In this document: piece by piece, positions 16,345-16,518 of the stretch
Layout: each line of letters starts with the position of its first letter
Numbering within the stretch: the first letter of the stretch is position 1
NCBI GenBank assembly: GCA_965203275.1
Contig: OZ241865.1
Location: forward strand, 1,152,001 to 1,216,000
Direction: 5' to 3'
DNA from: Bdellovibrionales bacterium
Lineage (GTDB): Bacteria; Bdellovibrionota; Bdellovibrionia; Bdellovibrionales; JAUICD01
Length of the DNA: 64,000 nt
The notes under the pieces: generated by a model
Seen by the model: only the letters and a program-made list of their open reading frames with translations
What the model was told of the DNA's origin: nothing
Databases searched by the model: none
Made by a program: the position numbers and the translations under genes

Positions 16345-16373
16345 TTGAGTTTATCCAAAGAGGATGATATACT
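16345..16373 (+). promoter_or_regulatory. sigma70-type promoter for crRNA-like unit 2
   Basis: TTGAGT (16345-50), 17 bp, TATACT (16368-73). Predicted +1 is near 16380, the first A of AATTTCTAC. Confidence 0.6.
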
Positions 16374-16379
16374 ATAATT

Positions 16380-16518
16380 AATTTCTACTGTTGTAGATTC
16401 ATATAAGTATAAGCAAGCAATTAACCATATCTAAAGATAGGGATTGACTTGTAAGTGGATATGAAAACTAAAGTTTCCATGATTCCATATTAAAAGAGGC
16501 CTTATGGTCTCTTTTTTT
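16380..16518 (+). ncRNA. Solitary Cas12a-type crRNA-like unit 2
   Basis: Exact AATTTCTACTGTTGTAGAT at 16380-16398, variable hairpin region, terminator AAAAGAGGCC-TTAT-GGTCTCTTTTTTT at 16492-16518. Confidence 0.7.

Follow-up and report, generated by a model that had tools for sequence, protein, structure and literature searches.

The question raised by this locus was which protein a stand-alone crRNA-like transcription unit might serve, and to what effect. The DNA analysed (the window) is 64 kb in length and corresponds to positions 1,152,001–1,216,000 of its own genome (G000), which consists of one contig of 2.57 Mb. An earlier note on the window had described a single type V-A crRNA handle between a promoter and a terminator and had proposed a small RNA of a mobile element that loads a host Cas12a-type protein as an anti-CRISPR decoy, a regulatory antitoxin or a small guide. 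From comparison of the sequences, our tentative answer is that the unit may specify a crRNA-like small RNA that is loaded by a Cas12a-family effector and acts mainly as a decoy in the manner of the RNA anti-CRISPRs (Racr) already known; we give this reading somewhat less than an even chance. The features of the focal unit, of the other units in the window and of the host effector genes are collected in Table 1.

Table 1. Features of the unit-bearing region and of the host effector genes. Positions are those of the window, except where contig C1 of the genome (G000 C1) is named.
Feature	Position	Strand	Evidence or remarks
Upstream partner gene, 132 aa, one membrane helix and coiled coil, family A1	15935–16333	+	ORF and family profile
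Sigma-70-type promoter TTGAGT-17-TATACT with TG extension	16345–16373	+	Promoter scan and paralogue conservation
Type V-A crRNA 5′ handle, 19 nt, AATTTCTACTGTTGTAGAT	16380–16398	+	Exact match
Spacer-like segment (psi-spacer), ~30 nt	16399–16428	+	Wholly different from closest paralogue 960072
Structured conserved tail: two stem-loops and box CATGATTCCATAT	16429–16491	+	Fold; aligns with units 960072 and 2428095
Intrinsic terminator: 10 bp hairpin and U run	16492–16518	+	RNA folding; kept across the unit family
Two small hydrophobic ORFs, 59 and 72 aa	16529–16917	+	ORF list
Unit A: degenerate handle (TATTTCTACTTTGGTAGAT, 14622–14640), ~36 nt tail, own terminator	14622–14706	+	
Family A1 gene 3′ of unit A, 177 aa	14762–15295		
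Third window unit: promoter-like conserved block, handle, tail, terminator	26652–26790	−	nhmmer E 6.7e-6
Family A1 gene upstream of third window unit, 87 aa	26783–27046	−	
Serine recombinase (resolvase/invertase), two fragments, island edge	18312–18885	+	Pfam PF00239, two consecutive short ORFs; PHROG DNA invertase
Truncated Cas12a, 982 aa, model positions 327–1287	G000 C1 235349–238297	−	TIGR04330, ~1027–1031 bits
Cas12a3-like protein, 1325 aa, intact	G000 C1 238802–242779	+	Divergent from the truncated Cas12a

The handle was matched with 0 mismatches, as the earlier note had stated, and we take it to be the Francisella Cas12a handle. It consists of a 5 bp stem (UCUAC/GUAGA) and the 4 nt loop UGUU, and the same sequence forms the 3′ end of the array repeats in the host genome and in relative G011. 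With up to three mismatches allowed, two matches were found in the 64 kb window against 0.04 expected, and none of 100 shuffled sequences reached two. The promoter boxes TTGAGT (16345–16350) and TATACT (16368–16373), with TG immediately 5′, are spaced by 17 nt and scored 9/12. Because the scan yielded 20 sites in the region against 16.2 expected, the match alone was given little weight; the weight comes from its conservation among the paralogues described below. As the −10 box ends 6 nt 5′ of the handle, the predicted +1 falls on the first A of the handle or on an adjacent base (~16380), which agrees with the placement proposed earlier.

The predicted transcript of 141 nt folded with an energy of −37.8 kcal/mol (z = −4.35), and none of 200 shuffled sequences was equally stable. 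From the 5′ end, the fold comprises the 5 bp handle hairpin, about 15 unpaired bases, two more stem-loops and the terminator hairpin. The fold-back CAAGCAAT/ATTGACTTG recorded in the earlier note is part of this minimum-energy fold, and its terminator was recovered by folding and recurs in the paralogues; it is absent from the list of the consensus terminator scan. The structured tail is possibly the remnant of a second repeat. A search of Rfam gave no family for the focal unit, whether at gathering scores or with E allowed up to 1. The handle lies 46 nt past the stop codon of the gene upstream. The 59-aa ORF starts with ATG 10 nt past the terminator and is preceded by AGGAG; neither it nor the 72-aa ORF had a family match, and it is uncertain whether the two belong to the unit.

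In the genome as a whole, a 15 nt handle pattern gave 32 matches, compared with 10 for the reversed control. Stand-alone units were identified with nhmmer using a profile of promoter and handle (17 units at E ≤ 0.0023), and two further units with degenerate handles and without the conserved promoter came from the pattern search, so that the handle is conserved in a family of homologous cassettes numbering 19 in all. Three of the 19 lie inside the window. The earlier claim of one handle only was thus too narrow: the degenerate handle of unit A is present as well, together with that of the third window unit (26716–26751, − strand), which is split by a 16 nt insertion.

The shared plan of the units is TTGAGT or TTGACT, TTATCCAAAGAGGATGA, TATACT, ATAATTA, the handle, a tail and AAAAGAGGCC-loop-GGCCTCTTTTTTT. 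Nine long units, the focal one among them, carry a variable guide-length segment of 21–32 nt followed by conserved sequence. In the ten short units the handle is joined directly to a stretch of 17–28 nt of the type AAAWTCATRATT, followed by the terminator, and the tails of these ten are mutually homologous. Remnants of a second repeat were significant in TATAGAATTTCTACT of paralogue 363998 (z 4.0) and in GACTTATAAATT of paralogue 2428095 (z 4.2); the corresponding value for the focal unit (z 1.5) was not significant. Given the long and short tails and these remnants, the family looks like a repeat/spacer/degenerate-repeat gene that has frequently lost its middle part.

Two side observations concern the sequences in and around the units. 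The spacer-like part of paralogue 960072 (G000 C1 960087–960106) is the reverse complement, at 17 of 20 positions, of window 16415–16434; the RNAs of the two units could therefore pair, and the complementarity may stem from a small inversion about an AATT core and not from a function. Blocks of an abundant intergenic hairpin repeat family flank several units (for example at G000 C1 364100–365500) and swamp BLAST comparisons.

Conservation in the family is centred on the promoter and handle. The focal unit and unit 960072 are 52% identical over the upstream gene, 95% over the promoter, 100% over the handle and 42% over the first 30 nt of the tail. The corresponding values are 57, 95, 100 and 100% for units 1744667 and 1884196, and 55, 93, 95 and 59% for units 1546817 and 1599450. 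In BLAST comparisons, the paralogues match from where the upstream gene starts as far as the terminator and no further. Of the 180 stem bases in the 18 uninterrupted handles, four were non-canonical, each by the same C-to-T change, which keeps a G–U pair; in the loops, 14 of 72 bases differed. On these alignments, the promoter–handle block is judged to be maintained by selection or conversion.

A possible partner for the RNA is encoded elsewhere in the same chromosome. The earlier statement that no cas genes or array lie nearby holds for the 64 kb window, in which no cas gene was found, and fails for the genome, in which the nearest array belongs to a type V locus ~920 kb from the focal unit (G000 230–249 kb). 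The effectors and the array that the earlier note had suggested looking for in the host were found there, namely an intact Cas12a3-like protein, a truncated Cas12a and an array with the same handle. The 982-aa Cas12a is truncated at the N-terminus, and its best solved relatives are Cas12a structures. For the 1325-aa protein, the only solved relatives were Cas12a3 (PDB 21we, 1.2e-71; PDB 9hlx, Ba1Cas12a3, 2e-58), and no NCBIfam match was obtained. By inspection it carries GIDRGQ, ILEDLD and DPDKVAAYNIA, which we read as the three RuvC motifs; of these, it is GIDRGQ that is placed by alignment to the solved protein. Cas12a3 is activated by target RNA with a purine-rich flank and cleaves the 3′ tails of tRNAs, leading to growth arrest (PMC12851939).

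The locus also contains cas2 and a truncated cas1 (245 aa, model positions 103–316, score under the model cut-off). The array has six full repeats and a degenerate end, with six spacers, and all of its repeats end in the 19 nt handle. In the same-genus relative G001 there are a Cas12a of 1407 aa, a Cas12a3-like protein of 1334 aa (50% identical to that of G000), cas4 and an array of 60 repeats and 58 spacers. Judged by the length of Cas12a (982 versus 1407 aa), the truncated cas1 and the number of spacers (six versus 58), the type V system of the host looks partly eroded.

Several further observations were made on the CRISPR loci. A second CRISPR–Cas locus, of type II-B, lies at G000 C1 2266370–2278444 (Cas9/Csx12 of 1476 aa, cas4, cas2, a split cas1 and 23 repeats). 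An apparent self-target of spacer 1 of the type V array was rejected, the matched site being itself a spacer of the type II-B array; the two spacers overlap with 27 of 28 bases in common, which means that the same invader region is represented in both systems. A repeat, a spacer and a degenerate repeat occur at G001 C1 2607907, ~750 bp past the end of the array, and the degenerate array end of G000 is duplicated at G000 C1 246033–246075, ~350 bp past the array; both may be CreR-like mini-arrays.

The units are associated with one gene family. A family A1 gene lies directly upstream of ten of the 19 units; its products are small and combine a single membrane helix with a coiled coil and a conserved P-I/L-x-T-Q-I stretch. 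There are 80 profile matches to this family in the genome, most of them without a unit behind them, and tandem runs of nine are found at G000 209–212 kb and 654–659 kb. Outside this genome, one weak match was obtained in G001 (3.2e-4) and none better than 0.003 in 19 other relatives. Compared with the same-genus G001, which has essentially none, family A1 represents a very large lineage-specific expansion. The best score of the 132-aa upstream protein against the protein atlas was 0.84, which is under the useful range.

The focal unit is situated in an island (~14.4–19.1 kb of the window) with a G+C content of 0.30, compared with 0.33–0.38 around it. The island contains small hydrophobic ORFs, an ankyrin-repeat protein and the two serine recombinase fragments, and it has genes that were not found in G001. 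Synteny with G001 is uninformative for defining an insertion, the flanking genes being 326 kb apart there. The location in a mobile element that had been suggested earlier remains putative: the G+C content is low and broken resolvase fragments are present, yet beyond these fragments no phage, plasmid or transposon machinery was recognised in the island around the units. Close same-strand ORFs follow seven of the 19 units and are absent from the other 12, and the downstream genes are of unrelated kinds.

As side observations, the ankyrin-repeat protein (240 aa, window 17101–17823) has a signal-peptide-like N-terminus, and paralogous N-termini occur near other units. A 105-aa HNH-endonuclease-like ORF recurs 3′ of units 1030159, 1744667 and 1884196. 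A 5S rRNA gene (84 bits) lies at 8070–8186 on the − strand, and the 64 kb window contains no tRNA.

No such units were found in 60 relatives when an 18 nt handle was searched with at most one mismatch; G001 and G011 have the handle in arrays. The single matches in G006, G055 and G056, and six matches in G001 outside its array, showed by eye no unit-like promoter or terminator and resembled coding sequence, and were not counted as units. The 25 nt formed by ATAATTA and the handle had no exact occurrence in the genome contigs collection, a scan that perhaps did not include the host genome itself. The metagenome contigs gave nine loci, of which six were arrays or array starts and three were solitary (L052, L055 and L056), and the viral contigs gave two (L057 and L058), both classed as proviruses. 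The two proviral copies consist of TTGACA-17-TATATT, the identical 25 nt, a tail of ~35 nt and a terminator. Unit A has a tail similar to the one in L057 (z 4.0; 0 of 300 shuffles; one of 16 units compared). On two related metagenome contigs the solitary copy follows a gene with a C-terminal membrane helix, and an integrase-like ORF is close by. The spacers of the relatives gave no convincing match to the unit-bearing islands or to the proviruses with solitary repeats.

Targets of the spacer-like part were searched for at several ranges. Genome-wide, with at most four mismatches in 20 nt and with units 264660, 1178760, 1916940 and 2428095 left out, none of the matches listed had a usable flank, and none was found within 2.5 kb on each side of the units. 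The focal 20-mer had no exact match in the viral contigs, in a test of low sensitivity which mismatched protospacers would escape. The TTTV-flanked matches to the sequence after the handle that the earlier note had envisaged thus did not turn up in the genome (among the matches listed), the cas locus or the viral contigs. A 13 nt identity between unit A and a site beside the start of the truncated cas12a was rejected, because that 19 kb stretch contains five comparable sites and the cas12a of G001 has none nearby.

Promoter-driven solitary V-A repeats are already a described and tested class and comprise RacrVA1–3 (PMC10651486) and CreR/CracrVA1 (bioRxiv 10.1101/2024.10.29.618823). RacrVA1–3 inhibited a Cas12a experimentally (PMC10651486). 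Like the Racr RNAs, the focal unit has a single repeat mimic outside an array, behind a predicted promoter and away from cas genes, in a host with a cas system of matching subtype. The Racr RNAs were reported from phages, prophages and plasmids, whereas 19 chromosomal copies without recognisable phage or plasmid genes are found here, ten of them coupled to one family of small membrane/coiled-coil genes; moreover, the intact host effector is Cas12a3-like and not a DNA-cutting Cas12a, and inhibition is predicted. CreR/CracrVA1 share with the focal unit a single repeat-like part, a spacer-like part, a terminator of the rho-independent type and a 19 nt 5′ hairpin handle. They carry ~10 PAM-proximal nucleotides matching the cas12a promoter at a TTTA PAM, of which no equivalent was found for the focal family, and CreR lies inside the cas locus, unlike the focal unit. 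In CRISIS, too, a gene is directly followed by a solitary repeat unit; that system is of type I-C, lies beside cas genes and targets, through partial complementarity, the promoter of the preceding defence genes (bioRxiv 10.1101/2024.12.27.630466), whereas the cognate comparison for the focal family was negative (see below). The proviruses L057 and L058 and the metagenome copies L052, L055 and L056 have in common with the focal unit a promoter, the identical 25 nt, a tail and a terminator. They differ from it in having one copy per record and the loop UAUU in place of UGUU, and no family A1 gene was seen beside L057. In the limited literature collection searched, no paper joined Racr or solitary repeat units with Cas12a2 or Cas12a3 or described such inhibition of a Cas12a3-type protein.

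The mechanism that we favour, and in which we infer transcription, loading and inhibition by the unit RNA, would run as follows. Transcription from the unit's own promoter would start at the first base of the V-A handle, so that no processing would be needed. The RNA would be bound through the handle by the intact Cas12a3-like effector and perhaps also by the truncated Cas12a. Since the guide part is largely folded and, among the matches listed, found no target in the genome, occupancy would be the most likely effect. The focal unit and its 18 apparently self-promoted paralogues would compete with the six crRNAs of the array and keep the nuclease in inert complexes, as the Racr RNAs do; an RNA-triggered, growth-arresting nuclease would thereby be blunted, which would favour the accessory gene cassettes bearing the units. 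Four points make up the case for a decoy: conservation centred on the handle, a guide part lost from half of the family, the structured tail and the parallels in phages. The 17–28 nt tails of the ten short units fit it, since such shortening is expected if only the handle matters, and the eroded look of the type V system beside that of G001 also counts in its favour. Three observations speak against it: nine units keep a guide-length segment that a pure decoy could do without, the Cas12a3-like gene has stayed intact, which is unexpected after long silencing, and 19 conserved chromosomal copies, around which no machinery of phages, plasmids or transposons was found, could just as well reflect an advantage for the host.

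That the segment is guide-length and variable, and is set between conserved 5′ and 3′ modules, would suit a hard-wired guide, in which the unit is a mini-array and its 30 nt segment directs the Cas12a3-like nuclease or Cas12a at an external phage or competing element. The second-repeat remnants in 363998 and 2428095 are in keeping with this, as is the erosion of the adaptation genes, by which fixed guides could come to replace new spacers. We nevertheless consider such a guide unlikely in view of the absence of an exact viral-contig match to the focal 20-mer (insensitive as that search is), the fold, in which only ~15 nt after the handle are unpaired, and the loss of the variable segment in ten units that keep promoter and handle. 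The single repeat, spacer-like part and terminator, being the architecture of the V-A CreR/CracrVA1, also call to mind a crRNA-like regulator in the manner of CreR, CreA, Cracr or CRISIS, which would repress a cas gene, a toxin or an adjacent gene by partial pairing with its promoter. The pairing did not materialise. Over 11 units, the mean best match of the spacer-like part to the promoter of its own upstream gene was 7.1/12, against 7.3/12 for the promoters of other units; in the cas locus, the unit tails found only short AT-rich seeds, and those flanked by a PAM were not above chance; in the genome, PAM-flanked consensus seeds numbered two, against one for the reversed control. The regulatory antitoxin of the earlier note has no PAM-flanked partial match in the cas locus or in promoters of neighbouring genes to support it. 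With the Cas12a that binds DNA truncated and the focal unit 920 kb away from the cas genes as well, a regulator of this type appears quite improbable.

Two further explanations compete with the decoy reading. The units may be relics, i.e. dead ectopic repeats or an old element copied along with membrane/coiled-coil genes, their similarity being owed to recent duplication or gene conversion. The interrupted unit, the two units with degenerate handles and no conserved promoter and the hugely expanded gene family (80 profile matches) would all be at home in such a history, which we regard as very unlikely given that the promoter–handle block is far better conserved than either flank and that every stem change keeps the pairing. 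More improbable still is a cis-acting element, in which the handle would be a Cas12a-family RNase site or a protein-binding site, fixing where the upstream mRNA ends or controlling read-through into the small ORFs for membrane proteins downstream. The short distance from the upstream stop codon, the AGGAG and ATG after the terminator and the close same-strand ORFs behind seven of the 19 units point that way; the conserved promoter of the units themselves and the downstream genes, unrelated in kind and absent from 12 of the 19, point away from it. A further, more speculative possibility of low probability is that this host-associated bacterium has lost DNA-cutting Cas12a and spacer acquisition and now runs the tRNA-cleaving Cas12a3-like nuclease with ~19 self-promoted germline crRNA-like genes joined to the expanded membrane/coiled-coil gene family, as a hard-wired repertoire of guides and buffers which would time growth arrest and would not be a parasite's anti-CRISPR.

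Solitary V-A repeats were known before as anti-CRISPR RNAs of phages and as regulators within cas loci. What is new here is a family of 19 units that appears to be maintained by selection across a bacterial chromosome and is tied to a single gene family. Of the type V effectors in the host, the one that is intact is a member of the RNA-triggered, tRNA-cleaving Cas12a3 group, which was described only recently. Should the RNAs load this nuclease, as the decoy reading supposes, a Cas12a3-type system would have its first natural modulator, or else a fixed set of guides, and ready-made short RNAs would be at hand for switching such nucleases off or programming them. The relative G001, with its full-length Cas12a, 58 spacers and no units, would form with the present genome a natural before-and-after pair.
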